Shown here: positions 31,298 through 55,032 of the stretch, piece by piece
How positions within the stretch are numbered: the stretch's first letter is position 1
Layout: every line of letters starts with the position of its first letter
NCBI RefSeq assembly: GCF_024298765.1
Contig: NZ_CP101211.1
Direction: 5' to 3' (one strand)
Length of the DNA: 64,000 nucleotides
DNA from: Escherichia coli
GTDB taxonomy: Bacteria > Pseudomonadota > Gammaproteobacteria > Enterobacterales > Enterobacteriaceae
The notes under the pieces: generated by a model
What the model saw: only the letters and a program-made list of their open reading frames with translations
Databases searched by the model: none
Told to the model about the DNA's origin: nothing
Position numbers and translations under genes: made by a program

Positions 31298-31305
31298 TTT
31301 TAACC

Positions 31306-31651: not shown

Positions 31652-32122
31652 TTAATGAATCCCTAAAATGCGGGCGGCGACTGCCAGCTGCTTATCACTT
31701 AACTGACGCTGGTGGGTTAAAGAAGACTTAAGGCTTTCCAGAAAATTATTACTGCTGGATTGCTGGGTGATTGCATCAACCATTTTTTGATGAGATCTGC
31801 ACCATGCATTGAACGCAGAGTTGTGGGCGTTTTCAGTCCTCAAACGCTCGTTTTGCAAGGATGCTGACACTTTGCGGGCAGCTTGAGCATTAATGCGGTA
31901 CAGCGCATTCAGCGTGTAAGCAGTGCGGGTCGTTTCGAGGCTGTAACCCGTGGCTTTACAAGCCATACAGCGACTTCTATAAAAATGCTTACGCTCTCCC
32001 CGACCATTGCATTTATCGCAAAGAATACGAAAAGTATATTCCGCAGTACCTTTTACAGAATCAACACAGCGGATTTTTGCGCTGGAGATTTCAATTCCAC
32101 TGCGATCATAATATTTGGTCAT
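31652..32122 (-). CDS. zinc-ribbon protein (156 aa)
   Basis: CDKC...CMAC cysteine pairs. Confidence 0.45.
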   Translation of the reverse strand: MTKYYDRSGIEISSAKIRCVDSVKGTAEYTFRILCDKCNGRGERKHFYRSRCMACKATGYSLETTRTAYTLNALYRINAQAARKVSASLQNERLRTENAHNSAFNAWCRSHQKMVDAITQQSSSNNFLESLKSSLTHQRQLSDKQLAVAARILGIH

Positions 32123-32189: not shown

Positions 32190-32556
32190 AGTAAATATTT
32201 TAAAAAAACATTGAGAGAGGGTCTGCAAATTTATACACGAAGGATTCAAATATAATTTTGTTTAAAAAATTAAGAGCATTCTGAAGTAAAAGTGCATCAA
32301 AAAGCATTCATGGATAAATCATGTACTGGTGCCAGCCATTTAAACGCGGGCATTGTTCCGGAGTGATTAAACGGTTTAGCATCATAGATTAAAACCAAAA
32401 GGAAGGCGTCCTTCCCGTCTCGGGAATATTACTTTCCCGTTTGCAATTTAAGAGCCACTTAATGAGAAAGTAATAATTAAGTCATGCTCAACTCTACATA
32501 TTACATTGAGGATGGCGTAACAGGGTACGGCATACTACCGCACCCTTCTGAAGAGC

Positions 32557-34947
32557 TTATGTTTGAGGGAATTCTATAGCAAATGTGGCCGTGCCAGATT
32601 GACCACTTACAGCGGGAGTAACGGGATACGTGCGCTCTTCACCATTACCAAGATCCAGTGACAGCGATTTAGTTTCACCAGGCTGGACCGTAACTCCGGC
32701 AACCGTAACGCCGAACTGGGCATTTTTCTGAACAGTCAGGGTTCCGTTTAACTGTCCGGTAATGATAGAACCGTCCTGACGCCGCAACACACTGGTTCGG
32801 ATGATGGCCAGCGGCGTGTTGTCCGTTGCTTTCAGTGCTACGGCTGTGGCCAGCGTCTTGAGATTATCCAGCATAATCAGATTCGCAGGCTGGTAGGTAA
32901 AATTAAGCGTTTTAGTGGTCCGGTTACCTGATTCGTCAATAGCCAGTGCCTCCAGATGATACATCTGTCCCGATTCGTCAGTGTTGGGGAAGATTCTGGG
33001 GTATTCCGGAATAAAGACATCCTTGGATAACGGCGTGAATGCCAGGGTGACCTTTTCAGAGTTAGGTCCACCAGCGAGCTGAAGCGATGTCAGGGAAGCA
33101 TCCCCAGAGGCATCAGTAACGCTTATGCGAAGGTTCTCAAGCCCTTTAACCAGTTTTCCTTCTGCGTCTGCGCCATTAAAACTGAACGCGATAACCGGAA
33201 GCGTTGAGTCAATTTTCAGCGGTGCATTAAGCGTTTTGGTTCCGGTGTTTCCAACAAGATCCGTGGCAGAGACGCTAACCACCGTATAATCCCCGTCCGG
33301 TAGACCAGCGTATGAGAAGGTGGCGTTTTTGGTTTTATAATCGCTTTCACTGACGGTCACAGGCTTCAGCGTGAAAGGTTCCCCCCGGGCATTTTTAAGG
33401 GTGGCTTCGAAAACTTTGGTATCCCAGTAGCTGATGTTCCAGGCGTTGACGCGATCATTATCGGTGGCCGTCATAGTGATTGTCTTGGAGGCCTTGTTTA
33501 CCTGAGCGACATTAACCACCGGTGGGTTGTTATCCCAGATAACCGTAAAATTACCAGCAAGCGCATCGAATATGCTGTCACCATCTTTTCCCGAGTAAAG
33601 GTGCAGATACTCAAATCCTTTGTCACTGGTGTAGTTGAAGTTAACCGTCATCTCGCATGAACTTTGTCCGATAGGTATAGTGCAGAACCAGGCTGCATTT
33701 TTTACCGTTCTGAACTTTTGCACGTATGGTCGGGGTTCAGCGGTTACCTTTATGCGGCTAATGGTGGCGGTTTTAACGCTGATTGAGGCCTGAGTTAACC
33801 ACTCACTGGTATCACTCCGGTACATCTCTTTAGCCACTATCTTCGGGGCTATTTCCATCGCCGGGGCTGGAGTGAAGTTGAGGGAGTTATGATGAATTCG
33901 TCTTACTCCTCCTGCCAGAGTCTGGAATTCATGATAAGTATCCCCCACATTGGGATATATGTATTTGAAAGTATAAATATTATAAGTGCTATCGGACGTC
34001 TGGAAATTCGAGTCCGCCCAGCCATATTTGGAACCGTTAACAGCAGTAAAGTCACTTTTTTTCCTTAATACCCGTACGGAAATAGGGTTCTGGAAGACGG
34101 TCATGCCAGACTGATAAGTGACCCATGATCCGGTAGTGGCGTCCTGCACCTGGATGATATCGTCAGGCTTAACCCGATCAATTACGCTTCGGCGGCTTAG
34201 TTCGATCCTGTTTCCCGCTTTGTCATAAAGGTAGATCCCCACTTTATATTCAGAGCGGTTTTCCGGTGCCAGGGCATTGCTGCTTGCGTCGGCGACTTGA
34301 ACGGTTACGCTACCTTCCACTGTATTAATTTCCGCTGGCTTTTTACGCTCCACTCCAGCGGCATCGGTTATGAAATATTCAGCATTAGCAAGCCCGGAAC
34401 CTTTATCACTCAGTCCATTAAAGACCAGTGCCTGGACGCTGGCGTACTGCATACCGGCTGGTACTGAAGTGAAGATCGCTTCGCTGCCAAAGTTCCACCC
34501 GTTTCTCGTATAACTTATGGTACCCGTTGCCGGAGGCGTTCGGTCAATTGCAAGCGGGTAATCCTGCCGGGAGACCTCCTTCCCTTGCAAGTCGGTAATC
34601 ACCTCTCTGAGGGTGAAGCTATCTTCTCCCATCGCTGGTACGGTCAGAGTCTTGCCGTAATAATCAAAGCCTGTCGAAGATGTGGTACGGTCATCTACGG
34701 TAACCAGGCTGCTTTTCGTGCTCCAGATGAGGCTCCCGTCACTTTTCAGCAGACTGAGCGTAATATAACGGTCCAGACCGGAAATAACGGCAACGTCAAA
34801 GCTCGTTACCGGATTAATCCATACGGATGCAGGCGATACGGTCTTTTTAACGTTCAGGGTATCTTTAAAGCTGAATTCTGCGATTTCAGCGGAAGCTCCT
34901 GCGCTGAAACCTGCAAATGCAATAAGCAGGGCTAGTTTGATTTTCAT
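32557..34947 (-). CDS. secreted Ig-like repeat protein, paralog 1 (~796 aa)
   Basis: Sec signal peptide MKIKLALLIAFAGFSAGASA; repeated D-x-T-P-P domain starts; paralog of 40500..42920 and 48582..51038; start chosen at the internal Met with AGGAGA RBS. Confidence 0.7.
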   Translation of the reverse strand: MKIKLALLIAFAGFSAGASAEIAEFSFKDTLNVKKTVSPASVWINPVTSFDVAVISGLDRYITLSLLKSDGSLIWSTKSSLVTVDDRTTSSTGFDYYGKTLTVPAMGEDSFTLREVITDLQGKEVSRQDYPLAIDRTPPATGTISYTRNGWNFGSEAIFTSVPAGMQYASVQALVFNGLSDKGSGLANAEYFITDAAGVERKKPAEINTVEGSVTVQVADASSNALAPENRSEYKVGIYLYDKAGNRIELSRRSVIDRVKPDDIIQVQDATTGSWVTYQSGMTVFQNPISVRVLRKKSDFTAVNGSKYGWADSNFQTSDSTYNIYTFKYIYPNVGDTYHEFQTLAGGVRRIHHNSLNFTPAPAMEIAPKIVAKEMYRSDTSEWLTQASISVKTATISRIKVTAEPRPYVQKFRTVKNAAWFCTIPIGQSSCEMTVNFNYTSDKGFEYLHLYSGKDGDSIFDALAGNFTVIWDNNPPVVNVAQVNKASKTITMTATDNDRVNAWNISYWDTKVFEATLKNARGEPFTLKPVTVSESDYKTKNATFSYAGLPDGDYTVVSVSATDLVGNTGTKTLNAPLKIDSTLPVIAFSFNGADAEGKLVKGLENLRISVTDASGDASLTSLQLAGGPNSEKVTLAFTPLSKDVFIPEYPRIFPNTDESGQMYHLEALAIDESGNRTTKTLNFTYQPANLIMLDNLKTLATAVALKATDNTPLAIIRTSVLRRQDGSIITGQLNGTLTVQKNAQFGVTVAGVTVQPGETKSLSLDLGNGEERTYPVTPAVSGQSGTATFAIEFPQT

Positions 34948-35081
34948 GGGTTGTCTCCTGATCAGGTTCCCCATGATACTTTTTCAGTGTTCGAGATCTT
35001 TTCGGGAAAATAGCTAATTTTAATGTTTTTCTTTTCTGCCCGGCGGGACTTGTTTTGTTTACGTAAATGCAAAAATACAAG

Positions 35082-35095
35082 AAAAGTTACTTTTT
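35082..35095. promoter_or_regulatory. AAAAGTTACTTTTT palindrome copy followed by TGATAG
   Basis: ~110 bp upstream of paralog 1; extended match to the copy at 51259. Confidence 0.5.
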
Positions 35096-35350
35096 GATAG
35101 GGTTAAAATTAGGTTTTCCCAATTTCCAGAAGCAAGCGAAAGCAGAACTAGCTTAATAGCCATTAAAAACGCCATGCCTATTGATAAATAAAGCTCATTA
35201 CATTTAATGATTAGAGCATTTAAAACTGAATTAGCGAAAGAATTTCGGTTAGCTTTTTATTGCATGAGTGAAACAGTATTAATAATCCGGAGCCATCAGA
35301 ACGTACTCTAAAGACTCCGGTATACAGATATCTTGCCAGTAAAAATGGCC

Positions 35351-35602
35351 TTACTCCTCATCATCCCCCAGCGCTTTTTTGATGGCGCGGCGGCGGGCTG
35401 CATCACCTACACGATATCCGACTGAATATACGTCATTCAACCGGCGCAGAATAAGATTTATTTCCTCATCCTGAATGTAGGCAGGTAAACACAGAACTAC
35501 GTCGCCATCTTCATCATAGACTCGAACAACTTCCTTCTGCCCATCTCGCTCGCGAATAATCTGGACATGCTGAACCCTGGTGTAATCTGGGATTACGCTC
35601 AT
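35351..35602 (-). CDS. hypothetical protein (83 aa)
   Basis: ORF. Confidence 0.4.
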   Translation of the reverse strand: MSVIPDYTRVQHVQIIRERDGQKEVVRVYDEDGDVVLCLPAYIQDEEINLILRRLNDVYSVGYRVGDAARRRAIKKALGDDEE

Positions 35603-35809
35603 TTTAAATATCTCTCTTTAATTGTTGTTACCAGTTAGCTATAAGCCGGTTTATTCAGGTACTCAGTGTTCTGCACAGCAATCGCCTGTTCGTGGATCAT
35701 TAACACTGCTGGGCGGGCTTTAAGGCGCTTGCTGGTGAGAAAACGCTTCACTTCTTTAAGTTCGCTGCCAGCCGACAGCATATTGAAGACATGCTGTTTG
35801 AGACTGTTG

Positions 35810-36067
35810 TTATTTTTGGCCACTTGTTTCTCCATCATCTTTGTACATGGTTGTGTCGGGCTGGCCTGCCAGATCACACACGTTATCCATATGCTTTTGG
35901 ACCCAGTCTGTTAGACCCAGGCCTTCGGCCTTTGCCTGATTGACGTAACGCAGTTTCCGATCAGGGGTAACCCGCATCTGTAGTTGTGCCGTCGCTGGAA
36001 CCGCCTCTTTCAGGGCGTTAAGGCCCCTCTGATCACGGGCCTGATTTGATGGTTTACCGTTTGGCAT
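35810..36067 (-). CDS. putative ribbon-helix-helix DNA-binding protein (85 aa)
   Basis: paralog of 9046..9402 (QLQMRVTPDRKLRYVNQAKAEGLGLTDWV). Confidence 0.4.
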   Translation of the reverse strand: MPNGKPSNQARDQRGLNALKEAVPATAQLQMRVTPDRKLRYVNQAKAEGLGLTDWVQKHMDNVCDLAGQPDTTMYKDDGETSGQK

Positions 36068-36491
36068 CTGAGGTATCGCTCTCCCGGCGAGCGGTGGACG
36101 ACTCTAATTCTTTTGCGATTGCTTTATCTACGGCATCCAGCTGCATAGCAAACTTGATTTCAAGCGAACAGCGTAATGCCTTCAGGGCGCGTTCTTTGGT
36201 GCTGTATTGTGGTATGCCGTTCTGGCTACCATTCATGCCTCGCATGCGGCGGGAGGTTGCATCGACAACCTCTCCCTCTTCCCGTGTGCCGTGAACCGTA
36301 GTTCCGCTCCATGTCGGATAAACAGTGCCAGTGGCGGTGTTGAAGCTCCAGCCGTTTTGGTATTCCCCCGAGACCTCTGGTACGGGCATATCGCGTTCAA
36401 CGCTATAGTCAGACCAGCGTAAAGCGCGGTTTATTCTGGCCTGTGCCACCAGCTCATCATAGGCGGCTTGTTCTTTTTTATTCATCGCCAT
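36054..36491 (-). CDS. hypothetical protein (145 aa)
   Basis: ORF. Confidence 0.45.
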   Translation of the reverse strand: MAMNKKEQAAYDELVAQARINRALRWSDYSVERDMPVPEVSGEYQNGWSFNTATGTVYPTWSGTTVHGTREEGEVVDATSRRMRGMNGSQNGIPQYSTKERALKALRCSLEIKFAMQLDAVDKAIAKELESSTARRESDTSDAKR

Positions 36492-36594
36492 TTAGGGCAA
36501 TCTCCTTAAAGGGGAATTAGGTGTTATATCGGTACGTAAGTGCTTTTCAGGCCTAATCTCTGACAAGGCCTGATGTGCCAGACTGCCGTTGCAT

Positions 36595-37119
36595 TCACCG
36601 TTTTATGGCGGTTGACTGAGCCTCATTAAGAGCCGCAATTAGTTCAGGCGAAGTCGGCTCCAGATTTTTGGAAGCGTTCAGCAGCTCCTTAAGTGAAGAG
36701 ATTTCCTTTGGCTCTACCTGGTTTGCTTCAGGAGCCGTTTTTTGAACTTCATCCAGAGTACGCTGTGCACCGTTATCCAGCACCAGCACACCCCCAGCAC
36801 GAATTTCTGAAATGGTGCGCACCGTATACATCATTTTATCCCAGACACGGCTACCAACCTCGATCCCGGAATCAGCTACTTTTTTTTCATTATGCTTTTG
36901 AAAAATTTCTTCTAACCATGTGGTGAAGCGCTTTCCAAAAGTATTGGCGGCTAAAGAAGTGCAGGAATAAACCTGTTCGACCTGTTTTGTTCCATTTTTA
37001 TCAGTGAATGTAATGAGACCGATTCGTCCACTGTTAACAGTGTAAAAGCGAGGTTGAAAGCCAGCTTTGAGAAGGTTTTCAATAGCTGAAAAAAAATCTT
37101 TTTTGAGCATCGGTTTCAA
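36595..37119 (-). CDS. hypothetical protein (174 aa)
   Basis: ORF. Confidence 0.5.
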   Translation of the reverse strand: MKPMLKKDFFSAIENLLKAGFQPRFYTVNSGRIGLITFTDKNGTKQVEQVYSCTSLAANTFGKRFTTWLEEIFQKHNEKKVADSGIEVGSRVWDKMMYTVRTISEIRAGGVLVLDNGAQRTLDEVQKTAPEANQVEPKEISSLKELLNASKNLEPTSPELIAALNEAQSTAIKR

Positions 37120-37439
37120 GATGGTTTTCCTTTTATGCCCGGTGCCGCCGGGACGGTGGCATTAAATATACGCCATGTAAGTAAATTAATTTTTACCCAT
37201 TTGATTGTCAATACAAACAAAAAATAAACCATGTTTATTATTTTACCAGCGATGCTATTTTAAAGTCCGTCTAAAATAAAAAACCAAAAAGTTAAATTTG
37301 AAGCCATCCTTCCTAAATTCATTTCTTGCGCATATTAGCCCCTGCTTTAAGTATATAATTTTTGAAAAAGTTGTCTGGAGGTTATTAGCTCGTGCATCTG
37401 GATTGTTAATATAAAGCCAACACAGAAAAGGAAAACAAA

Positions 37440-38204
37440 ATGTATAAATTAGTATCTCCTCGTGAACTGACTGAGATTATTACCGGTTTACTGCTTAAAC
37501 CTGAACTCCTTGGTGAGCTGGACTCACCAGAAAAGCATCGGATGTTTATGGCAGATTTAGGCCGGGTGGTGGCAGAACATTGTGGAGGTCTGGTAAACAG
37601 CGTCGTCTTGCCAGGAGCTGAAGTTACAGTGCCGGATGGGTTACCGCTTAACGGCCAGCCAGTACGTTATCTCGGAATCAAAGAGAGCATCCCTCACCTC
37701 CTTGTAGAGCCTGATGCTTCCTTACCTTCGCTCGCTAAAAACGTCTGGATGTATGCAGATCCTGAAGGCTGGAAAGAACATTTTGGAGCTGAGGAAGACT
37801 GCCTTACTCATGAAATGATGCAGCTGTTCCGTAAAGGTATCCAGGCTCTTCAGAAGGAGCATGATACCCCTGAAATTAGCCTCACACTTCAGGACTGGCG
37901 CCTGGAGGAGGAAACACTGAGAGAAGAGGACAGTCAGGCCTATCAGGTCAGCGTTACCGGCCAACATAACATCCACTGTGAAGTTGTTAACAAGGAAGGT
38001 AACCCCTGTTTTGGTGTCATGTTCGAAATCGATCAGGGTGTGCCTGCCTTACACATCAACACCGGCGGGGATATGTTGCTCCACATTCATTGCGCCCATA
38101 ACGGACTCGTTCTGACCCCTGATGCAAGCGGTCAGCGATTTGAGAAGGCTCCCGTTGACCGCTTCGCTTATAACAGCCCATCCCTGCTGTTGTCTGCCGA
38201 CTAA
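37440..38204 (+). CDS. hypothetical protein (254 aa)
   Basis: first gene of plus-strand block. Confidence 0.5.
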   Translation: MYKLVSPRELTEIITGLLLKPELLGELDSPEKHRMFMADLGRVVAEHCGGLVNSVVLPGAEVTVPDGLPLNGQPVRYLGIKESIPHLLVEPDASLPSLAKNVWMYADPEGWKEHFGAEEDCLTHEMMQLFRKGIQALQKEHDTPEISLTLQDWRLEEETLREEDSQAYQVSVTGQHNIHCEVVNKEGNPCFGVMFEIDQGVPALHINTGGDMLLHIHCAHNGLVLTPDASGQRFEKAPVDRFAYNSPSLLLSAD

Positions 38205-38284
38205 CCAAGGCCAAATCTGAATTGTCCTGTTTAAGTAACCAACCCGCTGCCGCCAGGCGGGTAAATCCTCTTAATGGAGTTTTA

Positions 38285-39046
38285 ATGCAAATCTCAACTG
38301 AAGTTCTGAACGTCTTATCTCGCTGCCGTGCTGAAGGGAACTTTCTTTTCCTGGCCGACCAGCTCGACCGCAGCATTTATGTTAAGACAAACAAAGTGCT
38401 GGAAGCTGCCGGTGGCAAATGGAACCGAAAAGAGCAGGCACATATTTTTACGGCGGATGCAGCTGAGCGTATCGAGCAAATCATTCTGACAGGTTCGGTC
38501 GACATCCCACGTGATTTGTTCAATTTCTTCCCTACCCCTGAGAATTTAGTCACAGATATGGTTCTACGCGCTGAACCAGCTGCCGGGGAACGTGTTCTGG
38601 AGCCTGAGTTTGGTGATGGCCGCATTCTGAAAGCCTTAAAACTGGCGGCTCCGGATGCATTGATTACCGGGATCGAATTGAACGATGAGCGATTCCTTGC
38701 AGTGAAGAACGATAGTGTCCTTAGCACAGGGGCCGAGCTGGTGCATACCGACTTTCTTGGGTACCAGCCCGATGAAACTTTTGATGTTATCGTTATGAAT
38801 CCACCATTCCTTAAACGCTCTGACGTTAAACATGTCATGCATGCCATCGCAATGCTCGCTAAGCGAGGTCGCTTACAGGCCATTCTGTCAGCTGGGGTAT
38901 TGTTCCGGGAAGACACACTGACAAAAGCGCTCAGGGAGCGAGTCAAACAACTTGGCGGACAAATTTCGCCTCTTCCGGATGATACATTTAGGGAGTCCGG
39001 AACAAAGGTCAAAACAGCCCGCCTTGAAATTGATCTTCGCCGCTAA
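38285..39046 (+). CDS. orphan DNA methyltransferase (NPPF motif, likely N6-adenine)
   Basis: VIVMNPPF catalytic motif; start taken at the internal ATG with GGAG RBS. Confidence 0.7.
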   Translation: MQISTEVLNVLSRCRAEGNFLFLADQLDRSIYVKTNKVLEAAGGKWNRKEQAHIFTADAAERIEQIILTGSVDIPRDLFNFFPTPENLVTDMVLRAEPAAGERVLEPEFGDGRILKALKLAAPDALITGIELNDERFLAVKNDSVLSTGAELVHTDFLGYQPDETFDVIVMNPPFLKRSDVKHVMHAIAMLAKRGRLQAILSAGVLFREDTLTKALRERVKQLGGQISPLPDDTFRESGTKVKTARLEIDLRR

Positions 39047-39139
39047 CTGACAAGCAACCGGAAAGAAATCTTAATACGAGTAGCCGGTTAAAGTTACCTG
39101 ACCGGCTTAACTGACTAAATCAATAAAGAGTGAACAGAA

Positions 39140-39403
39140 ATGACGCATACTGCCGTTTCTCAGGCTAATAGTGCTTTGCAGCTACCCACGCTGGAGCATG
39201 TCTACGCACTTCTGAAAGCAAATTGTAAACCTGACCGCTTTGACGGGCGTGACGGCCCCGTGTGGGGCCAGGAATACTCGTGGAATCTGGCAAAAGATCG
39301 CTTACAGGATCTGGAGAAATACGGTAAGGCATATGTCTCCCGTCATGAAGACCGTATGGGGGAAGGATTTAGTTTTGGTCCTGACCTGTTAATTATTCGC
39401 TAA
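39140..39403 (+). CDS. hypothetical protein (87 aa)
   Basis: ORF. Confidence 0.4.
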   Translation: MTHTAVSQANSALQLPTLEHVYALLKANCKPDRFDGRDGPVWGQEYSWNLAKDRLQDLEKYGKAYVSRHEDRMGEGFSFGPDLLIIR

Positions 39404-39423
39404 CGCTCTTAAGGCCTGATGAT

Positions 39424-40035
39424 ATGGTAAGCACAACTGGAAAAAATATGTTTTCAAAGCCTATGACCACTTTCACACCAGAACGTATTGAACAAATTTT
39501 GGAATTTTCCGAGGGTAGTAACCCAAGCGAAGCAATGAGTCTTAGAGCTGACGAAGTTGCTGTACTGGCACGTATTGGAAAGGCAGTTATGTCGATTGCG
39601 CCTGTTTATCAGTGCGAGTTTTGCCACCATGACGCAACCGGGCAACTTCAGTGGCACTGGGAAGATGTGAACAAAGCTTTTTATGATAAATACGATCCAG
39701 ACAGACGCGGAAGACGTCGAATCCTCTATACCGCCCCGCCGATGCCTTTAGTTTCGGCTGACCTGCTTAACATGGCTTCATCTGCTATTGAAGACTTGCT
39801 CACTAACAAAGACAGAAGTGGTGCGGGAATGTGGAATGACATTCCAGAACAGCTACGACGCGCAGCAGAACTGGTAATGGATAATAGCCGGGCCGCTGAA
39901 ATAGAAGCGATGCTGATGCGTCTTTATGTAGAATGTGACACCGGTGAGCGCAGAGGCAACGGCAGTCAATCTGGCGTAGCAATGCCTTCGTGGCAAACCG
40001 TTGAAGAGGCACGTGTGTTGCTGGGGGTGAAATGA
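39424..40035 (+). CDS. hypothetical protein (203 aa)
   Basis: ORF. Confidence 0.5.
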   Translation: MVSTTGKNMFSKPMTTFTPERIEQILEFSEGSNPSEAMSLRADEVAVLARIGKAVMSIAPVYQCEFCHHDATGQLQWHWEDVNKAFYDKYDPDRRGRRRILYTAPPMPLVSADLLNMASSAIEDLLTNKDRSGAGMWNDIPEQLRRAAELVMDNSRAAEIEAMLMRLYVECDTGERRGNGSQSGVAMPSWQTVEEARVLLGVK

Positions 40036-40499
40036 TGCAGTTCTCGCCAGGGCAGTTTGTAATTCACAACAAGAAGCGCCTTGCGGAACGAAGGTAGACG
40101 TACTGACTGAGGTTCACTCCCCTCTCGACTGGTGGCGTAATACCGCCAGGTTTTGATTCATATATGCCGTCCGTTAACGCATTTATATCTGTCATACCTA
40201 ATTTATCCTGATTCTTTTTTACACAAAGTAAAAGCATCACTTAATGCGATATGTGGATGCCGATAGTTTCAGGCTAATGTTATAAGTTTTGCAATCGTTG
40301 CCAGTTTGGATACCACAGCAATGTCAGATGTAATTCCAAAAAGAAAGATTTACGTCCTGAACGCACAATAAGGTTTGTCGAAAGGCAAATTATAGATTTG
40401 TAATTTCGAGCACCATATGGAGAAGTTTTTTATACTTTTACGAACATAGTGACCTTTAGGAAAAGCTTAAAATAACACCAAACCTAAAGGGGAATAAGA

Positions 40500-42920
40500 A
40501 TGAAACATCTCGCTTTTATTACTGCTGTAGCCGGACTCGGTATGTCTGTTCAGGCCCCAGCTCAGATATATGAATCGGCCTTTAAGGACACGAACGGTAT
40601 TGAGATCCACGCCCCGTCTTCTCGTCTTATGCTTAATCCGGCATCACCGGTAACTTTGACACTTATTTCAGGTCTTGATCGTTTCGTTAATGTCAAAGTC
40701 ACGAAAGACACTGGAACTGTCATTCTTAATACTACGACTACACGGACGGGTGTATCAGACCGACTAACAGCTGCTGACGGTAGTGAGTTCTACGGCAAAA
40801 AAGTAACTTTGCCTGCTTTGGGTGAAGGCAAATTTGTCGTTCAGATAAACGTGTTAGATCTCAATCAGAAGCCTGTAGCGACCTATAACTATAACTGGCT
40901 AATTGATGTCACCCCTCCAGCGGCAAATGCTCTTACCGCTAATACTGGTTCTGGCTCTACCGCTGGTGACGTGTGGAAGCTTGGATTAGAGGCAACGGGG
41001 CAGTATGACTTCACCTCTTCGGGCGTAAGTGATGCAAATGGTATTGATAAGGGCCTAATATATATTTACAGGCAGGACGGTAGCCTCTACAGCACTACAC
41101 AGATGCAGTATGACGTATCCGGCCAAAAGATGTACCACACTTACTCTAAGAATTCAGTTAAGGGAACCGGAATACCAGACAGCAACCTGGATGAAGACTT
41201 TACTGCAAAAGTTGTTATCTTCGATAACGCAGGTAATAGCCGAACGCTGCCAACTCAAAAATTTCGCTACGACAACACGCTGGGTGAGATGACACTGTGG
41301 GCCGTTCATGATCCAAATACGTCTTCCAGCGTCGTACCCGGGGTTTCTAATTATCCGGCTTACAAAGCCGGTATGGTCGTTAACGAAAACCCTATTCGAT
41401 TAGTCTACCGGATCCCAAAATCTAACTACCGTGCTTATTCAGAAGGTGGGCTTCAGTTCATCAATCAATATTCCGCCCCCAAAGAGATAGCTGTAGACAG
41501 CACTTATGCTTATGTTGAAATGACTCTTCCCTATGGCTCAATTAATGGGGATATGGCTCGTATGGCGAACTTTGGCCAGTGGGGAGGGTATTATCCGTCA
41601 TACAGCCTCGTTCTAAACCCATCTGCAAACCAAACGCCTGCATTTGCGGGTACCTGGGTAGATTTCCTCGATGATAAGGGGAACTGGGTTAAGTGGAAGG
41701 ATTTTGAGAGTGTGGCTTCATCACGACTGCCAATTAAAATTTCCCGACTTCGTTTTAACGTTGAAGCCCGGCCCTTTGCACAGGAGATCGGCGGTAAGGC
41801 GACCTGCACCATTCCGGCAGGAAAAACCTCGTGTGAAGCGCCTGAGACGTTTGATATGGCCTTGGGTACCCAGGGCTACAATAGAATCCTTTACTTCGTT
41901 CGCAGCATCAGCAATCCCATTTTGCGGTCTGAGCAATGGATTATGACACGCTGGAACAATAAACAACTGCCGGTAATAAACTCGATATCATATGACGAGA
42001 CTAACAAGCAGCTGGATGTACTGGCGTCACTTGAAGGCGATGGTAACTGGTTCGACTCGGTCTCATTGAGGGAATTTTATCTTTCCGATAAGAACACCGG
42101 TACCCGGATGTCACCAACAGGCGTAATCAAATCTCGTATCTCAGGTAACTACACGATTGCTTATGATTTATCCCGTCAGTCTGAAGGAAAATACAACGTT
42201 GAGGTCAACATCAGGGACTTCTTCCAGAACCAGACCAATAAAACTTTCGGAGAAATTGCTCTGGATAACACTCCTCCGACAGTGGCCATAACATTCGACG
42301 GAAAGCCGGTAAAAGACGATACGGTAGTGTACGGCCTGGAGAACCTCAGGATCGCTCTGGCAGATAATCTGACAACCCCGAGGATAACCCGTCTTCAGCT
42401 CGTAGGTGGCCCCACAGCTGATAACGTTGAGCTTACGTGGTCACCGGCAGGCAAAGATACATACATGCCTGAGTATCCGAGGCTGTTCCCAAATTTCGAA
42501 CCATCTGAAAATTATTCAATTAGCGTAACAGTTGCCGATAGTCAGTCGAATACCAAAACCTATACTCAGAAGTTCAGTTATCTACCGAATAACCTTGTGC
42601 AGTTACATAATCTACGCACATTGTCGGTCAGTTCACCTCTCAAAACGACAGATGGCGTACCACTTGCGTACCTGTCCACTAACGTTCTGCGTAAGACAAA
42701 TGGAGAAATTGCTAAAGGGGTCCAGAACGCAACGCTGACTGTGCGGAAGGATGCAGCCTTCGGTATTAAATTTAATGGGGCACAGGCGGCTCCAGGCGAG
42801 TCAGTTGAGGTGCAAATAGATATGGGCCAGGGGGATAATCTTCTGTTACCCGTTTATCCTTCCGAAAATGGGAAAGTTGGCACCTCAGAATTCATGATTC
42901 AGATCGACGAGTTGAAGTAA
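40500..42920 (+). CDS. secreted Ig-like repeat protein, paralog 2 (806 aa)
   Basis: signal peptide MKHLAFITAVAGLGMSVQA; D-x-T-P-P domain starts; C-terminus ~55% identical to paralog 3 by eye. Confidence 0.7.
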   Translation: MKHLAFITAVAGLGMSVQAPAQIYESAFKDTNGIEIHAPSSRLMLNPASPVTLTLISGLDRFVNVKVTKDTGTVILNTTTTRTGVSDRLTAADGSEFYGKKVTLPALGEGKFVVQINVLDLNQKPVATYNYNWLIDVTPPAANALTANTGSGSTAGDVWKLGLEATGQYDFTSSGVSDANGIDKGLIYIYRQDGSLYSTTQMQYDVSGQKMYHTYSKNSVKGTGIPDSNLDEDFTAKVVIFDNAGNSRTLPTQKFRYDNTLGEMTLWAVHDPNTSSSVVPGVSNYPAYKAGMVVNENPIRLVYRIPKSNYRAYSEGGLQFINQYSAPKEIAVDSTYAYVEMTLPYGSINGDMARMANFGQWGGYYPSYSLVLNPSANQTPAFAGTWVDFLDDKGNWVKWKDFESVASSRLPIKISRLRFNVEARPFAQEIGGKATCTIPAGKTSCEAPETFDMALGTQGYNRILYFVRSISNPILRSEQWIMTRWNNKQLPVINSISYDETNKQLDVLASLEGDGNWFDSVSLREFYLSDKNTGTRMSPTGVIKSRISGNYTIAYDLSRQSEGKYNVEVNIRDFFQNQTNKTFGEIALDNTPPTVAITFDGKPVKDDTVVYGLENLRIALADNLTTPRITRLQLVGGPTADNVELTWSPAGKDTYMPEYPRLFPNFEPSENYSISVTVADSQSNTKTYTQKFSYLPNNLVQLHNLRTLSVSSPLKTTDGVPLAYLSTNVLRKTNGEIAKGVQNATLTVRKDAAFGIKFNGAQAAPGESVEVQIDMGQGDNLLLPVYPSENGKVGTSEFMIQIDELK

Positions 42921-43022
42921 CTACCCGGAGCCGACAGTAAAACTGACGGCTTCAATTTTACTGCCCTCCTCGACTCCGATCAGCCAGTACGTCTTCAGAG
43001 ATTCGCAAGGAAGAACCGAAAG

Positions 43023-43034
43023 AAAAGTTACTTT
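43023..43034. promoter_or_regulatory. AAAAGTTACTTT palindrome copy (not upstream of a minus-strand gene start)
   Basis: lies 3' of paralog 2 and next to the iteron-like array. Confidence 0.4.
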
Positions 43035-43074
43035 AATCGTACGTTTCCAGCGATGCTTTCAAAAGACAATGCAT

Positions 43075-43377
43075 ACTCGTTGATTACGACAATGGGAGTG
43101 AGTGTCGAACCCCTTGAGTAAGGATACTTGGTAAATATACAGCCCCGGGGATTCTCTTCCTTCAACCGGGGATGACAACGGGAGTGAGTCCGGCAACTCA
43201 CACCTGTTGTCACTTCTCTGACATATCGTCATACGAGCTTACTCAAGCGCATCCACAAAGATGGGATCGTTTTGAATCTAAACTGGTACTGGTTAGCCAG
43301 TCACTTGCATCTACTCCCCCGTCGATATTTAAGTGACAATTGTAGTGATCTGCAATACTGGTGTCTCAGAAACACTG
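43075..43377. repeat. iteron-like palindrome repeats (left part of array split by IS)
   Basis: units such as ATGACAACGGGAGTGAGT...ACTCACACCTGTTGTCAC. Confidence 0.6.
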
Positions 43378-43421
43378 TGTTGTGGTCAAGTTTTTTTGGA
43401 CACGCCGATCAGATGGTAGGG

Positions 43422-44662
<1,241 letters not shown>

Positions 44663-44680
44663 TTAAATTTGACCACAACA

Positions 44681-46312
44681 CTGACGACGGTAGAGACTCA
44701 ATACCCTAACCCCTGACAACAGAAGTGAGCTTAGAGGTGTTACGCTGCTGTCACCTAATGCTTGGGAATTGCCTGACTCACAACCATTGTCATCCGGAGC
44801 TACTGATTAACGTTGAACCGCTGGACTTTAATGACAGTGGTAGTGATGGATAGGCTCATTTCCATTGTCGTCATTTTATCGGACAAGCCTCTTCGTCCTA
44901 CAGGTTTAAGCTGACAATGGTAGTGATTGGATGATCTCACTACTGTTGTCACTCAGTTCTTTGAGCGGACCCTTCCCTCGGTTGGTCGGCATTAACAACG
45001 GTAGTGACTCGATTGGCTCACTGCCATTGTCATCGTGTAAATGACGTACCTTATCAGCTCAGCTGAAAGCAATGACAACGGTAGTGACTCTAATTGCTCA
45101 CTGCCATTGTCGTCGTGTCTATTGAGAGCCTTATCAGTGCACCTGAAAAGCAATGACAACGGTAGTGACTCTAATTGCTCACTGCCATTGTCGTCGTGTC
45201 TATTGAGAGCCTTATCAGTGCACCTGAAAAGCAATGACAACGGTAGTGATTCTAATGGCTCACTACCGTTGTCACCGTGTGTATTGAGAGGATGGTCCAC
45301 TTAACTGGACGTATATGACAATGGTAGTGACTTTAATAGCTCACTACCATTGTCGGTGTGTGAATTGAGAGGATGAGCAGCTCAGCTGTACGTCCATGAC
45401 AATGGTAATGACTTAATGAGCTCACTACCGTTGTCACCCTGTTAATTAAGAGGCTCATCTGCTCTTCTGGAAGGCTATGACAACGGAAGTGACTTGCTGG
45501 GCTCACTGCCATTGTCGCCGTATGAATTGAGAGGATCATCCGCTCTTCTGGATGGCAATGACAACGGTAATGACTTAATAGGCTCACTACCATTGTCACC
45601 CTGTGAATTGAGAGGATGATCTGCTTAACCAGACGGCCATGACAACGGTAGTGACTTTCTGGGCTCAATACCGTTGTCACCCTGTGAGTTAAGAGGTTGA
45701 CCCGCTCTACTGGACGGCCATGACAACGGTAGTCACTTTCTGGGCTCACTACCGTTGTCACCCTGTGAGTTAAGAGGTTGACCCGCTCTACTGGACGGCC
45801 ATGACAACGGTAGTCACTTTCTGGGCTCACTACCGTTGTCGCCATATAGAATGAGAGGAGCATCAGCTCAACTGAACGGCAATGACTACAGTAATGAGCT
45901 GGATGAAGCATAACCATTGACATCTGGCCCAACCGGAAGCCGTATTCGCCAATCCAATCGAGATTCACAATGGCCGTGACTCGCCGCATTAAGTTCCGGT
46001 GTCCTCCCAAAGCTGAACGCACACTCGGAGGACAATGACAATGCCAGTAAGGTACACATCATTACCATTGTCACTATAGCTACCAGAGAAGCCGGGATTT
46101 GAATGTCGATGGTAGTGAGTGGGTCAACTCACTGCCATTGTCACCCCGTTACGATATTTTCCGTTGGATGTACTGGCCAATGAAGTAAAGCGTAGAAACC
46201 GGGTGTTAACAGGTGACTCAGGAGAAAGCGTTGAATTTCGCAATCTCGATCTACATAGGGTGGTAGAGAACAATGACAACGGTAATGACTTTTGACTCAT
46301 TACCGTTGACGT
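44681..46312. repeat. tandem array of about 20 x 81-bp repeats, each with an inverted pair of iteron-like 15-mers (TGACAACGGTAGTGA / TCACTACCGTTGTCA)
   Basis: exact 81-bp periodicity visible (e.g. 45069, 45150, 45231); adjacent units identical or near-identical. Confidence 0.85.
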
Positions 46313-46385
46313 GAAAGAGCGGGCTGGGACTAACGAAAATCGAAGAAGTAATTTAGCACCCGGAGCCTAAACCGCCGGGTTAACT

Positions 46386-47474
46386 TTAGCTGGCGTTGCT
46401 GTTCTTTTTCTGGCTTCGAAGACTACGAATATAGCGCAGTTCTTCAGCGGTTAAATCATGGACGGTAAGAACATCATCGCCGTCAATCGGGTCAGCTGGT
46501 GGGCATAACTCACCTTCTAAAACAGAAGACCCTGAGTTCTCTTCTTCATCTTCAACCACTTCTAAAGGAGGCTGAGTATTGTTCAAATTCAGATCGGGAT
46601 CCCGCTTATGAATCTGGAAGTATACTTTTCCGTCTTTCTTAATTTCGGTGTACTTGAGGTATCCTATCGATGCCAACTCTTCAAGAGCCTTTCTCACGGT
46701 AGCATTCTGACTATTTGCTCGTGTTTTGAGGTTCAGACGATTTTTCAGCCGAGTAAGGGATATCGGTATAGGATTTGGCGGTAATGACTCTATGAACGTA
46801 TAGAGAGCCTGGGCGCTTTCCTTCTTGGCCAACTCCTTAATTGCCTTCAGCTGCATCAAAACCTTATGATCGTATTGATAGAGCTCGAAAATCTTAGGAT
46901 CAACCTGAAGGACAACCTGATCTGATTCCGGGTCTAACAGGGCAGACTGTACCAGATGCGTTGTATAGACTTTGGACGAGTTATTACTGGTGAACGACAA
47001 GGTAACGGATGCTAACCTGCGTAAGGAGGCGTCTATACGTTTTCTGGACGCTGTAGATGAGCGATAATTTTCAGGCGTACATAGCTTGAGGAATTCAGTG
47101 AATTTTAAGCTTATCGTGTCATTGTTAATCGGATGATTGGCATAGGTTCGAATGATGCCCATCCACGTCTTAAAATCTACTGACATATTAAGACGCTCAC
47201 CGACAATTGAAATATTGGTGAACCCCTCGCTCTCCATTAAAGAGAGCGTCTGTAACTCTTTCGTTGCGTCAAAGCCAACCGTTTTATATTCCCGATTTTG
47301 ACGCCCCACACTCTTTGGTGATGGGACGAACAGCCCGAGCCGCATCAAAGCAATAGACTGCACCGTACGGTTGCTGTTAGGACGCAAAATGATGTCTTTA
47401 CCTGATTCTTTCTCTCTAACAGAGAAAGCCCTGGTGACCAGGTCCTGCTGCTCAGTATCTTTCTCTTTAGTCAT
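46386..47474 (-). CDS. repA: RepFIB-family replication initiator RepA (362 aa)
   Basis: ESAQALYTFIESLP.P.PISL.RL..RLNLK and N-terminal NTVQ..ALMRLG.FVP match RepFIB/P1-type RepA; flanked by iterons. Confidence 0.85.
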   Translation of the reverse strand: MTKEKDTEQQDLVTRAFSVREKESGKDIILRPNSNRTVQSIALMRLGLFVPSPKSVGRQNREYKTVGFDATKELQTLSLMESEGFTNISIVGERLNMSVDFKTWMGIIRTYANHPINNDTISLKFTEFLKLCTPENYRSSTASRKRIDASLRRLASVTLSFTSNNSSKVYTTHLVQSALLDPESDQVVLQVDPKIFELYQYDHKVLMQLKAIKELAKKESAQALYTFIESLPPNPIPISLTRLKNRLNLKTRANSQNATVRKALEELASIGYLKYTEIKKDGKVYFQIHKRDPDLNLNNTQPPLEVVEDEEENSGSSVLEGELCPPADPIDGDDVLTVHDLTAEELRYIRSLRSQKKNSNAS

Positions 47475-47599
47475 AATAAGTTATCACTGAATGTGTAAAC
47501 AGATTGGTGAATAGTAAGCCCCAGCGAACTCTATGTCACTGGATGGATCATTGTGATGATCCATATCTGTGCATAAGTTCTACCTAAAAAAACGACTCC

Positions 47600-48250
47600 A
47601 CTCATTAAAACTTGGCAAAAACTCTTTGCATACAATGACCTGCAACTCTTATCAACAACGGATCAGATCAAGTTAAAAAGATCTAATGAAAAGTCACTAC
47701 TATTGTCGCTCTGATCACTACTGATGTCAAAAAACTCATTACCAACGTTATAATAATCACTACTAATGTCAAAATAATCACTACTGTTGTCACTGATCAC
47801 GTCTCAGGCCTTGTGCCGTCTGGCCTGGAGGCAGCGGGGATCTCTTTTGATCTATCAGGAACACTAAGGTACTAATTATTGGAACTACCTTGTGGAAAAT
47901 GGGGATAAATAAATGCTTAGTTCTTATACAGGTCTCAACTTGCCTCCCTGATAAAAACTGTCGTCAAAGCTAAATCACAGCCACAGGCATTTTCGGTGGA
48001 TAAATTTTTGAGAAATAGAAGCATACATGCAGACTCGTGTCGCAAGTAATTGAAAGTAATGATTTATTTAAATAATGCGAGTCACCTTACCTCACAGTGG
48101 AAGTTTAAGTCTAACCTCACTACCATTGTCACTTAAAATCATTACCAACGTCGAAATAGTCTCTACCATTGTCTTTTAAGTCACTCCCGTTGTCACTTAT
48201 GTCGCTACTGTTGTCAGTGACAATGCTCCAGCCCAGTAACCATGCGGCCT
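47600..48250. other. putative iteron-type replication origin
   Basis: two sets of ~5 direct iterons (TCACTACYRTTGTCA, ~21-23 bp spacing) at 47693-47800 and 48116-48228; GATC cluster at 47661-47690; AT-rich spacer. Confidence 0.6.
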
Positions 48251-48452
48251 ACAGCGTACCGGGATCTTCTTTGTACTCTCTGGCACCTTTGGGATCATTT
48301 ATTGGATCTACATGAGGGATAAAATCTTTTGACGATTTCGTAGTGCAGTTATACCAGCGACTTAGCAAGACAAAAGCTGCAATTTAGTGACGAGTTACTA
48401 GTCTGCCCAACAAGAGCAATGCAGAGAAGATATGTGGTGAAATGACCATGGT

Positions 48453-48486
48453 AGTGAGTCTAATCACTACCATGGTCCGCAGTAAG
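48453..48486. promoter_or_regulatory. perfect inverted repeat GACCATGGTAGTGA-N6-TCACTACCATGGTC (iteron-like palindrome)
   Basis: 14-bp arms; sequence related to iterons. Confidence 0.45.
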
Positions 48487-48581
48487 CGTTACTTACGCAA
48501 TGAACGTCGGACTGATTTGCAACAACATGGGCTACGGCGCATCAGAAGGCGGCCGTTGTGCTTCAGCAAAACAGCCCTGCT

Positions 48582-51038
48582 TTATTTTAATTCTTCAATG
48601 TTAATCATGAACTCAGATCTGCCAGTAAGGCCGGATACAGCAGGGAAAATAGGAAAGCTACGGCTGTCCCCGAGCCCCAAATCCAGTTGAAGCTCTTTGC
48701 TTTCACCTGGCATCGCAGAAACGCCATTTACAGTCACGCCGAATGCAGCGTCCTTACGGACAGTAAGCACTGCGTCCTGAAGCCCTGTAGCGATTGAACC
48801 ATCCTTTTTACGCAGCTGGCTGGCATACAGAACAGCCAGAGCAGTATTGTCAGATGTTTTGAGAGAAGCATTGACAGCTAAGGTTTTCAGATTCTCTAGC
48901 CTGACGAGATTGTTTGGAAGGTAGTTAAATTCGACTGAGCTTTCTTTAACGTTGTTCATCTCATCTTTGGCCTGAACTGTGAGAGTGTATGTTTCGCCTT
49001 CATTAAGAGACGGAAAGATCTTGGGATAATTAGGTGCATACAGGTTGTTTCCCAGATTCACCCAAGACAATTCCACCGCATCAGAAACAGGGCCACCGCG
49101 AAGAGTCATACGGCTTAAGGATGGTTTAGTTAGAGCATCGGTGAGCTGTATACGGACGTTCTCCAGCCCATATACTGTTACGTTTTTGCTGATCGGTTTT
49201 CCTTCGTAGCTAATACTTACAGATGGTGCTGTATTATCAACGACAACTGTTTGATAAGGGAGGTTACCGGTATTGTTGAATGTATCTTGGGCATTAATCA
49301 CCACGTTATAACTGCCTTCTGGTACCTCTTTCATGTTGAACTCATACGTGTAGTTCCCAGACGCCATATTTCTACCTGTTTGTTTGCCGGTTACGCTTAT
49401 TTCTGCGTTGTTACGGTTTTTATCTGACAACCAAACTCGATTTACATAAACATGGTCGAAATATGAACCATCTCCAGGTTGATTCACGTAAACCTGGAGA
49501 ATGTTGGTGGTTTCATTGTAATCAAATCCAGTGACGGAGGGACCCAGTGTATGCCAGGCTATATTCTCCCATATAGGGGCAAAGAAGGTTGCTTCGGTGG
49601 TTGACCTTACTTCATAGCCACTATGAAGATAACCGGTAGTGCCATTTATAATATCCTGGGGCAAAGAGACGGTACAGGTTGTTGAGCCAGCTGGAATACT
49701 GCATGTTGCTCCGCCAGTGATTTTTTGATCATATGGCCTGGCCTGTACATTGAATCGGATATTAGTAAGTTTTATAGGCATATCAGATGCCTTGAACAGG
49801 TTCCAGTTTACGCTGTTGAACCATGTTCCATCAGCCTTTTGTCGTTCTATGGGTGAACTTCCCCAAGCCGGACTCTTTACAGAGGCAGGATCCCAGTTGA
49901 GCCAGCTGGCATACTGACCAAGATCTCCTCCAGACCATTGATATGTATTCACAGGTCTATAGTAGTTTCCATCTAAGGCACCCTGTGGCAGCTTAACTTC
50001 CACGTAGACATAGGTGGCATCTTCGGAAAGGACCTGTACTCCGCCATAGTTATTGGTAATGCTCATGCCACCATTTCGATATGGCTTCCAGTTAGTTCTT
50101 GGGATACGTATAACCAACTTGTAGGGGTTTTCCAGCACTGTAAGGCCTCGTTTAAACGGGACGTATCCCGAAGAAATGCCGGGTACAACACTGGTGCTTA
50201 CACGTGAGTCATGAACTGCAAATGGCGTAAATTCTCCCATTTGATCGTCATATAAAAACCGCTGGGGAGGAATGTTAAGCGTATTTCCTGCCAGGTCCGT
50301 AACGATGAAATTGAAGGTGAATTCTTCATCAAGATCACTTGAGGGCATGCCAGCCTGGGTGTTCATATCTTTAATCCACGGATAGAACGCACGTTTATTG
50401 GCTGTGTCATAACTCAGGTTATTGTCGGAGACCACAGAACCATTACTTCGTTTAATGACAAGACGGATCTTGTCAATTCCACTAGCATCCTCAATACCGT
50501 CTGCAAATATAGAAAACTGGCCACTACCGCCTCGGCCCAACTCCCAAAGTGGCCCAGAAAGTACCATGTCGTAACCTGCGTTTTGACTCGGATAAATACT
50601 CTTATAGCGTGGAGGAGTTGTATCAACGATGAAATGATAAGTAGATGTGCTCACTACAGTCTGGCGAATATCCAGAGTTTCATTGACTACAGTAAAGGTC
50701 CCTTCTCCGAGCGCCGGTAGAACCATATCCTTTCCATAGTATTCTGTTCCATCGGCAGCAACGATACGATCTGCAACGCTCGTTTTGGTCGAGACGGAGG
50801 AATACATAACCTTTTTATCGCTGTCTCGTGTGACCGTCACTCGCTCGTACCGATCAAGACCCGATATCAAGTTCAGAGTCAAAACACCAGCGGGATTAAG
50901 ATATGTTTGTGTTGCAGGTTTGATATTCCGAACAGCCTTATTGGTATCTGTAAATGAGTAGCTAAATACCTGAGCATGTGCCGAAGATACAGTAGCAAGG
51001 GCAGTTGCAACCATGCAGCCAATTAGAGTTTTACGCAT
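48582..51038 (-). CDS. secreted Ig-like repeat protein, paralog 3 (818 aa)
   Basis: signal peptide MRKTLIGCMVATALATVSSAHA; D-x-T-P-P domain starts; two palindrome copies upstream. Confidence 0.7.
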   Translation of the reverse strand: MRKTLIGCMVATALATVSSAHAQVFSYSFTDTNKAVRNIKPATQTYLNPAGVLTLNLISGLDRYERVTVTRDSDKKVMYSSVSTKTSVADRIVAADGTEYYGKDMVLPALGEGTFTVVNETLDIRQTVVSTSTYHFIVDTTPPRYKSIYPSQNAGYDMVLSGPLWELGRGGSGQFSIFADGIEDASGIDKIRLVIKRSNGSVVSDNNLSYDTANKRAFYPWIKDMNTQAGMPSSDLDEEFTFNFIVTDLAGNTLNIPPQRFLYDDQMGEFTPFAVHDSRVSTSVVPGISSGYVPFKRGLTVLENPYKLVIRIPRTNWKPYRNGGMSITNNYGGVQVLSEDATYVYVEVKLPQGALDGNYYRPVNTYQWSGGDLGQYASWLNWDPASVKSPAWGSSPIERQKADGTWFNSVNWNLFKASDMPIKLTNIRFNVQARPYDQKITGGATCSIPAGSTTCTVSLPQDIINGTTGYLHSGYEVRSTTEATFFAPIWENIAWHTLGPSVTGFDYNETTNILQVYVNQPGDGSYFDHVYVNRVWLSDKNRNNAEISVTGKQTGRNMASGNYTYEFNMKEVPEGSYNVVINAQDTFNNTGNLPYQTVVVDNTAPSVSISYEGKPISKNVTVYGLENVRIQLTDALTKPSLSRMTLRGGPVSDAVELSWVNLGNNLYAPNYPKIFPSLNEGETYTLTVQAKDEMNNVKESSVEFNYLPNNLVRLENLKTLAVNASLKTSDNTALAVLYASQLRKKDGSIATGLQDAVLTVRKDAAFGVTVNGVSAMPGESKELQLDLGLGDSRSFPIFPAVSGLTGRSEFMINIEELK

Positions 51039-51193
51039 ATGATGCTCCGGGAATAGGTTATAGCCTTATTCTACGGATTCAGCCTACAAGGTCCGGTCGG
51101 ATAAAGTGATAATTTGCCTGTTAAAAGAGACATCAAGTGAGAAAGCAACCAACGTACAGAATGCAAAATGGCGGCAGTGCATCTGGATGACGC

Positions 51194-51207
51194 AAAAGTA
51201 ACTTTTT
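51194..51207. promoter_or_regulatory. AAAAGTAACTTTTT palindrome copy
   Basis: ~155 bp upstream of paralog 3. Confidence 0.5.
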
Positions 51208-54983: not shown

Positions 54984-55032
54984 AAGCCTGTATTTTACCA
55001 GGCTTATTCTGCGACAACCAGGATAAAGAGCG

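Follow-up and report, generated by a model that had tools for sequence, protein, structure and literature searches.

The 64,000-nucleotide stretch of Escherichia coli DNA analysed here (contig NZ_CP101211.1 of assembly GCF_024298765.1; hereafter the window) encodes three diverged proteins of about 800 residues with immunoglobulin (Ig)-like domains, W1, W2 and W3, and raises the question of what these proteins are and what a set of three might do for one replicon. A first-pass annotation, made from the letters alone, had seen them as an unexpected presence in a 'DNA-centred island' and did not recognise their family. The window is instead the backbone of an IncHI2 plasmid around its replication gene. 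More than 260 E. coli replicons, almost all of them plasmids of 230–330 kb, match the segment around W2 at 100% identity. One plasmid identical to the window, NZ_CP071712.1, has the IncHI-type initiator RepHI2 annotated in this region. The repHI2 gene (46386..47474, minus strand, located from that annotation) identifies the replicon and is flanked by the paralogs, which on plasmids 100% identical to the window carry the RefSeq label 'Ig-like domain-containing protein'. Nor is a set of three unusual, as IncHI1, IncHI2 and IncHI1B-type plasmids carry three to five family copies around the replicon. Pfam places the proteins in a family defined by the DUF4165, Big_3_2 and Big_3_3 domains, two members of which have been studied experimentally: RSP2 of the IncHI1 plasmid R27 and the IncC protein ALG87338.1 (PMC8730810). 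The data presented below favour the view that W1, W2 and W3 are three anciently diverged RSP2-family proteins that probably aid conjugation by binding to pili and flagella.

Architecture and homology of W1, W2 and W3

Open reading frames for W1 (796 amino acids; 32557..34947, minus strand), W2 (806 amino acids; 40500..42920, plus strand) and W3 (818 amino acids; 48582..51038, minus strand) lie where the first-pass annotation placed them, and all three are full length with good ribosome-binding sites. The W1 frame is open up to 34974, but no Shine–Dalgarno sequence accompanies the ATG there, whereas the one at 34947, taken as the true start, has GGAGA. Each protein begins with the Sec-type signal peptide that had been predicted for it. 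In every case an N-terminal Lys/Arg, a hydrophobic core (Kyte–Doolittle 2.3–2.65) and an A-x-A site precede the cleavage point, which follows MKIKLALLIAFAGFSAGASA and precedes Glu in W1, follows MKHLAFITAVAGLGMSVQAPA and precedes Gln in W2, and follows MRKTLIGCMVATALATVSSAHA and precedes Gln in W3. The Ala at position −1 reaches at least 90% conservation among 75 family members, n, h and c regions with A-x-A or S-x-A are present in W1, W2, W3 and RSP2, and 62 of 73 members qualify under a simple rule for signal peptides. Beyond the signal, the Pfam order DUF4165, Big_3_2, Big_3_3 is identical in the three proteins, with a variable middle between the two Big domains and a C-terminal module after Big_3_3. 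The respective E values are 4e-13, 3e-22 and 1.6e-40 in W1, 9e-14, 5.5e-27 and 3e-63 in W2, and 5.7e-17, 1.9e-38 and 1.7e-65 in W3. The D-x-T-P-P-like domain starts described in the first-pass annotation correspond to D-x-T/N-x-P motifs, two or three per protein, that mark the starts of Big_3_2 and Big_3_3 (residues 135, 472 and 580 in W1, 136 and 589 in W2, 139 and 601 in W3; the W1 and W3 protein queries began after Met1, so that residue numbers given by the tools are the true numbering minus 1). One pair of Cys residues, the only two that are conserved, is present in at least 90% of the family.

Models of W1 and W3 built by AlphaFold2 with family alignments are both all-beta and of high local confidence (predicted local distance difference test 91.1 and predicted template modelling score 0.77 for W1, 91.0 and 0.68 for W3). 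In each, an N-terminal helix corresponding to the signal peptide leads into roughly eight beta-sandwich domains. Neither model has a specific structural match; the fold resembles those of tandem-Ig fibrillar adhesins, S-layer proteins and RTX adhesin extenders. PrgB of the Enterococcus plasmid pCF10 gave a weak Foldseek match (8beg, rank 47). It too is a plasmid product with tandem Ig-like domains, and at the cell surface it promotes mating-pair formation. It is a functional analogue only, however, being Gram-positive and LPXTG-anchored, with a different adhesin domain and no sequence homology. Searches of the family against NCBIfam gave no match above any curated cut-off, the PDB sequence search gave none at E values up to 1, and PADLOC and PHROGs returned nothing useful.

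The relationship with RSP2 (R0055 of R27) is evident at the protein level. By BLASTP, W1 (38.7% identity, E 1e-174), W3 (35.3%, 2e-122) and W2 (32.1%, 5e-107) all align with RSP2 end to end, and this is the clear homology to a characterised family that the first-pass annotation had itself named as grounds for refutation. RSP2 also shares their length class (794 amino acids) and domain order, with DUF4165 at residues 23–142, Big at 143–254 and Big_3 at 537–693 (PMC8730810), and a direct comparison with R27 returns W1 and RSP2 as reciprocal best hits. A word-indexed homolog search returned only 23 close relatives and missed RSP2. An exhaustive HMMER search was needed, and it recovered 402 cluster representatives at 50% identity, which fall into length classes of ~800 and ~1830 amino acids. 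A neighbour-joining tree built from 75 full-length members unites W1 with RSP2 (96 of 100 bootstrap replicates) and W2 with W3 (100 of 100), the latter pair forming a sister clade to the W1/RSP2 clade. W1, W2 and W3 are therefore short-form members of the RSP2 family. The family occurs in 3058 plasmid records, 2740 of them large conjugative plasmids, and every typed example inspected is MOBH/MPF_F (IncHI, IncC).

Age, selection and comparison with R27

The first-pass annotation recognised a conserved C-terminal module and estimated by eye that the paralogs are 40–55% identical. That range holds for the module, which is the most conserved part of the proteins, and not for the full chains, where identity is 28.6% (W1–W2), 29.0% (W1–W3) and 41.2% (W2–W3). 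The two ends are conserved, while residues 142–560 are hypervariable, with 14–21% identity between W1 and W2 or W3. That this reflects diversification and not recent duplication, as had been proposed, is borne out by the deep ortholog and paralog pairs, in all of which the proportion of differing synonymous sites (pS) is ~0.8, against a nonsynonymous proportion (pN) of 0.11–0.44. Because synonymous sites are saturated in these pairs, the duplications that gave rise to W1, W2 and W3 are ancient. The saturation also makes the ratio of nonsynonymous to synonymous substitution rates (dN/dS) unusable for deep ortholog pairs, and estimates come solely from a comparison within IncHI2, between the window and p707804-NDM, which represent two IncHI2 lineages. 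W1 displays 31 synonymous versus 5 nonsynonymous differences (dN/dS 0.05) and W3 displays 9 versus 3 (dN/dS 0.10); backbone genes nearby have similar or higher values. In PLSDB, ~1030–1100 plasmids carry copies at 99% identity or above. These dN/dS values show that W1, W2 and W3 are functional, intact genes under purifying selection and not pseudogenes, a possibility the first-pass annotation had kept in view.

In R27 the corresponding neighbourhood comprises a W3-type gene, rep, a W2-type remnant and RSP2, and synteny with the window is anchored by a RelE/ParE gene. The W3 ortholog of R27 is split by IS30 (81.6% identity over 705 amino acids at R27 48925–51084, with a C-terminal remnant at 84%), and the W2 ortholog persists as remnants only (86% and 74% identity, 55629–56478). 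An intact 818-residue W3 ortholog with 82% identity is found in most IncHI1 plasmids (L007 13998–16454), and IncHI1 thus carries a second, intact family member; an intact W2 ortholog (74.6% identity) is present on the C. freundii plasmid NZ_CP032179.1. Backbone proteins of R27/IncHI1 and IncHI2 are 47–90% identical, with a median of ~62%. W3 and W2 are better conserved than the average backbone protein, whereas the W1/RSP2 pair is far more diverged and gives no blastn match. IncHI2 plasmids have been described as being without rsp2 (PMC8730810), probably because W1 and RSP2 are too diverged for a BLAST search. At the level of the predicted proteins IncHI2 carries three RSP2-family genes, which corrects the published absence.

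Strict positional orthology between W1 and RSP2 was rejected. The two belong to the same clade, yet are only 38.7% identical and occupy different slots in the same neighbourhood. In R27 the gene of this clade (clade C) is directly next to the W2 remnant, in IncHI2 it is 5.5 kb from W2, and in pCF10-tmexCD1 it stands in tandem upstream of a W3-type gene. RSP2 also differs from W1 in its DUF4165 domain, which is 56–59% identical to the W3 type and only 29–34% to the W1 type; outside this domain RSP2 is closer to W1 (R27 gene, L005 11499–13883). This indicates that RSP2 is chimeric, the outcome of an old domain swap between paralogs. A further difference is that the W2/W3 clade is non-functional in R27, whereas IncHI2 keeps three intact copies. 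Multi-copy arrays appear to be the rule for IncHI-type plasmids, while IncC has one fused copy (see below). Klebsiella IncHI-like plasmids (for example NZ_CP023723.1 and NZ_CP024641.1) carry four or five copies that are only 36–39% identical to W2 and W3. Single paralogs are often disrupted by insertion sequences (IS), namely IS30 in R27, IS1 in p707804-NDM, ISKpn18 in TUM plasmids and IS2 in CP082693, a pattern that fits partial redundancy. Across plasmids, IS elements have repeatedly landed in or beside the Big paralogs.

RSP, the IncC fusion protein and the proposed role in conjugation

A second, larger Big protein, RSP (R0009; 1432 amino acids), is encoded on the same plasmids as W1, W2 and W3. 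Its gene is located in the Tra2 operon, as is that of R27 (27517–31821 of NZ_CP071712.1; R27 rsp at L012 11659–15957), and the protein is 83.5% conserved between IncHI1 and IncHI2. RSP homologs are found on 2961 plasmids, against 3058 for the family of W1, W2 and W3, and the genus counts match. By BLASTP the W proteins give only weak local matches to RSP. The common core is seen only by hhalign, which aligns RSP 137–498 with the region of the family extending from the middle to Big_3_3, including the conserved Cys pair, with a probability of 97.5%; the shared core spans ~320 amino acids and contains a PRxYxQ...CxIPxGxxxC motif. RSP is without DUF4165 and Big_3_2 and has a C-terminal extension of ~900 amino acids. 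Assignment of the W proteins to the RSP type was rejected, as they end at the C-terminal module and their genes flank repHI2.

The Big protein of IncC plasmids (1828 amino acids, WP_000606835 of pNDM-EcoGN568; L006 8968–14454) is encoded between the pilin gene traA and dsbC/traC. Residues 1–814 are collinear with W3 (33%, E 4e-142), W2 (32%) and W1 (27%), while residues 822–1819 match RSP 372–1405 (E 1e-63). On this alignment the IncC protein is a natural fusion of an RSP2-like half and an RSP-like half, which are separate proteins in IncHI. Neither the fusion nor the family core retained by RSP is stated in the papers examined. The IncC long form has the Pfam domains of W1, W2 and W3 and is likewise encoded by a MOBH/MPF_F plasmid, but differs from them in its additional RSP-homologous extension of ~1000 amino acids and in being a single copy inside a tra operon, where the W genes flank repHI2. 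The W proteins are not of this type, as the homology covers only the N-terminal 814 residues and the genomic context differs. Judged from these genomic data, the fusion, the co-occurrence and the location of rsp in Tra2 support a functional partnership of the short forms with RSP, consistent with the interaction published for RSP and RSP2. The IncC fusion provides independent genomic support for a partnership previously seen only by co-immunoprecipitation.

What the W proteins may do can be approached through experiments on their homologs (PMC8730810 and PMC6764697). RSP2 is present in the secretome, and its release requires RSP together with the pilus components TrhH and TrhA. The protein binds both flagella and the conjugative H-pilus, and deletion of rsp2 lowers transfer ~100-fold in liquid at 25 °C (PMC8730810). 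The IncC protein ALG87338.1 of pKAZ3 is required for conjugation at 25 °C (PMC8730810). By homology with these R27 and pKAZ3 proteins, W1, W2 and W3 would be expected to share the secretion route, the binding to pilus and flagellum and the effect on conjugation. Each would cross the inner membrane via Sec, lose its cleavable signal, and fold in the periplasm into a string of roughly eight beta-sandwich domains that contains one conserved disulfide. Exit from the cell would then depend on assembly of the H-pilus and on RSP, encoded in the Tra2 operon of the same plasmid, and outside the cell binding to the conjugative pilus and to flagella would stabilize the contact between donor and recipient and raise transfer, mainly in liquid and at low temperature. 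The conserved ends (the DUF4165 head, Big_3_3 and the C-terminal module) may serve shared export and docking to RSP or the pilus, and the hypervariable middle may carry whatever differs between the paralogs. Among the candidate roles put forward in the first-pass annotation, mating appears to be the best-supported guess, by way of the homology to RSP2 (PMC8730810).

Several observations weigh against this reading. The roles ascribed to the IncHI2 proteins would derive entirely from experiments with homologs, W1 is only 38.7% identical to RSP2, and with the W2/W3 clade broken in R27 the data from that plasmid say nothing direct on it. The W genes are ~40 kb from the tra operons and outside any of them. 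The IncC homolog has no effect on motility (PMC8730810), implying that flagellum binding is not universal in the family. The frequent IS hits on single paralogs mean that each one is dispensable, and the Sec signal sits uneasily, in mechanistic terms, with the reported release that depends on the type IV secretion system.

A related but different explanation, which we regard as possible though unlikely, is that the short forms are interchangeable partners of RSP, itself resembling a long form devoid of the N-terminal head, each with a different binding specificity (recipient surfaces, flagella or substrates), and that together they widen the mating range. The proteins combine conserved ends with a hypervariable middle (14–21% identity between W1 and W2 or W3 over residues 142–560). 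The chimeric nature of RSP2, the joining of RSP2-like and RSP-like halves in a single IncC chain, the three to five copies per IncHI-type plasmid and the occurrence of the clade-C gene in three different slots across three plasmid lineages all point in the same direction. No positive selection is detectable, however (dN/dS 0.05–0.10 within IncHI2), no ligand is known, and neutral drift of linker domains could explain the deep divergence equally well. In an extension of this scheme, put forward tentatively, IncHI would hold a split, modular version of the IncC Big protein, with RSP as a pilus-associated stalk lacking the DUF4165/Big_3_2 head and the short forms, at least three in number, as exchangeable docking heads; domain swaps between paralogs, of the kind found in RSP2, would make new combinations. 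If true, the H-pilus would gain several binding specificities that set the mating range.

A role as general adhesins or biofilm factors, attaching to surfaces or host tissue independently of conjugation, seems improbable. In its favour are the structural resemblances listed above and the location of the genes outside the tra regions. Against this, Pfam reveals no anchor domain, no type I or type V secretion or sortase signal and no lectin domain, the family is found almost solely on large conjugative plasmids (2740 of 3058 records, with all typed examples inspected being MOBH/MPF_F), and the IncC member is encoded inside a pilus operon. Neither of the distant relatives suggested by the first-pass annotation survived closer inspection. 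Similarity to invasins, taken to include intimin, SiiE-type and autotransporter adhesins, is not borne out, as the W proteins have neither a beta-barrel or LysM anchor nor a C-terminal type I secretion signal nor arrays of BIg_1/BIg_2 repeats. Similarity to TraN is contradicted by the presence of only two conserved Cys residues and the absence of a TraN domain in Pfam, and a separate trhN gene is present on the plasmid. Surface proteins with several paralogs are a frequent feature of exclusion and phage-resistance systems, and a coat on the pilus or cell surface could in principle guard against redundant mating or pilus-specific phages, in keeping with the binding of RSP2 to pili (PMC8730810). 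We consider this very unlikely. Loss of donor ability, as observed in the R27 Δrsp2 and pKAZ3 mutants (PMC8730810), is not an exclusion phenotype, PADLOC and PHROGs gave no match, and nothing similar to TraT, TraS or Eex turned up in Pfam or NCBIfam. The exclusion role proposed at the outset is not supported by any of the evidence. That the genes are decaying, redundant relics devoid of current function, as the frequent IS insertions in single paralogs and the two broken copies in R27 might suggest, is the least credible explanation and is already largely refuted by the selection data (dN/dS 0.05–0.10). It is further opposed by three full-length genes with good ribosome-binding sites, by copies conserved at 99% or above in more than 1000 plasmids, and by the 82% identity of W3 between IncHI1 and IncHI2 compared with ~62% for the median backbone protein.

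Among the carriers of mcr-1 and other resistance genes, IncHI2 plasmids are prominent, and it has been suggested that antibodies, nanobodies or vaccines directed at their Big proteins could block plasmid spread (PMC6764697, PMC11268884). Three intact RSP2-family genes under selection imply both redundancy and antigenic diversity, and anti-conjugation strategies and single-gene knockout studies must reckon with both.

A plasmid-wide palindrome and the neighbouring genes

The first-pass annotation noted a palindrome together with TGATAG upstream of two of the three genes. This is correct for W1 and W3, but the palindrome is not a mark specific to these genes. The 13-bp sequence AAAAGTWACTTTT occurs at 13 sites in the window at up to one mismatch (1288, 6337, 6463, 20617, 25666, 29878, 35082, 40799, 43023, 51194, 51259, 59338 and 61202), against 0.1 expected. 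The copy associated with W1, AAAAGTTACTTTT at 35082–35094, is followed by TGATAG at 35095–35100 and lies 135 bp upstream of the start codon. W3 is preceded by two copies of AAAAGTAACTTTT, at 51194–51206 and 51259–51271, 156 and 221 bp upstream of its start codon, with a TGATAG at 51271–51276 that overlaps the second. The region upstream of W2 contains no copy; a one-mismatch copy, AAAAGTTACTTTA (43023..43035), is located ~100 bp downstream of the W2 stop codon. The palindrome is also common in R27 (8 sites in 34 kb and 5 in 22 kb), and an IncHI1B-type plasmid is similarly rich. Its positions are conserved among IncHI1, IncHI2 and IncHI1B-type plasmids despite DNA identity of ~70%. It is found upstream of W3 orthologs at the same relative position in R27 (L005 2737) and pCF10-tmexCD1 (L009 10884), and between the W2-type gene and the rep gene in the same two plasmids (L005 9582 and L009 17663). 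Of the 26 sites inspected across the window and R27, about 18 are intergenic. Most sites lie 90–220 bp upstream of genes, and some are inside tra genes. From its distribution the palindrome looks like a candidate operator of a plasmid-wide regulator that is not specific to the Big genes. The global arrangement resembles that of KorB sites on IncP plasmids. A literature search on the palindrome found nothing relevant.

With respect to transcription, a terminator-like hairpin followed by a T-run (32400..32416, minus strand, a consensus match only) lies downstream of W1 and suggests that W1 is a monocistronic unit. Matches to sigma-70 promoters were no more frequent than in shuffled sequence, and no promoter was assigned.

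On NZ_CP071712.1 the surroundings of repHI2 contain, in addition to the three Ig-like genes, IS elements, orphan methyltransferases, a RelE/ParE toxin and many hypothetical genes. The genes of the RelE/ParE-family toxin and of an adjacent protein of 156 amino acids lie at 31306..31602 and 31652..32122, both on the minus strand. The toxin is 90% identical between IncHI1 and IncHI2, the highest value for any protein in the region; the 156-residue protein, at 65% identity, may be its antitoxin partner. An open reading frame of similar size to the paralogs (794 amino acids; 20735..23119, minus strand) was considered as a fourth family member and rejected, as it carries a PAPS-reductase domain and is outside the family; it is 75% identical to its R27 counterpart. 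Its neighbours include orphan DNA methyltransferases (26303..27553 and 38285..39046) and an HNH endonuclease (19093..19626), with which it may form a DNA-modification or anti-defence module. Insertions of ISKpn18, IS5 and IS66-family elements (43422..44614, 52163..53131 and 53448..55800) break the backbone beside W2 and W3, and a jump in GC content to 0.51–0.57, rising at 52–56 kb, coincides with the IS5/IS66 block.

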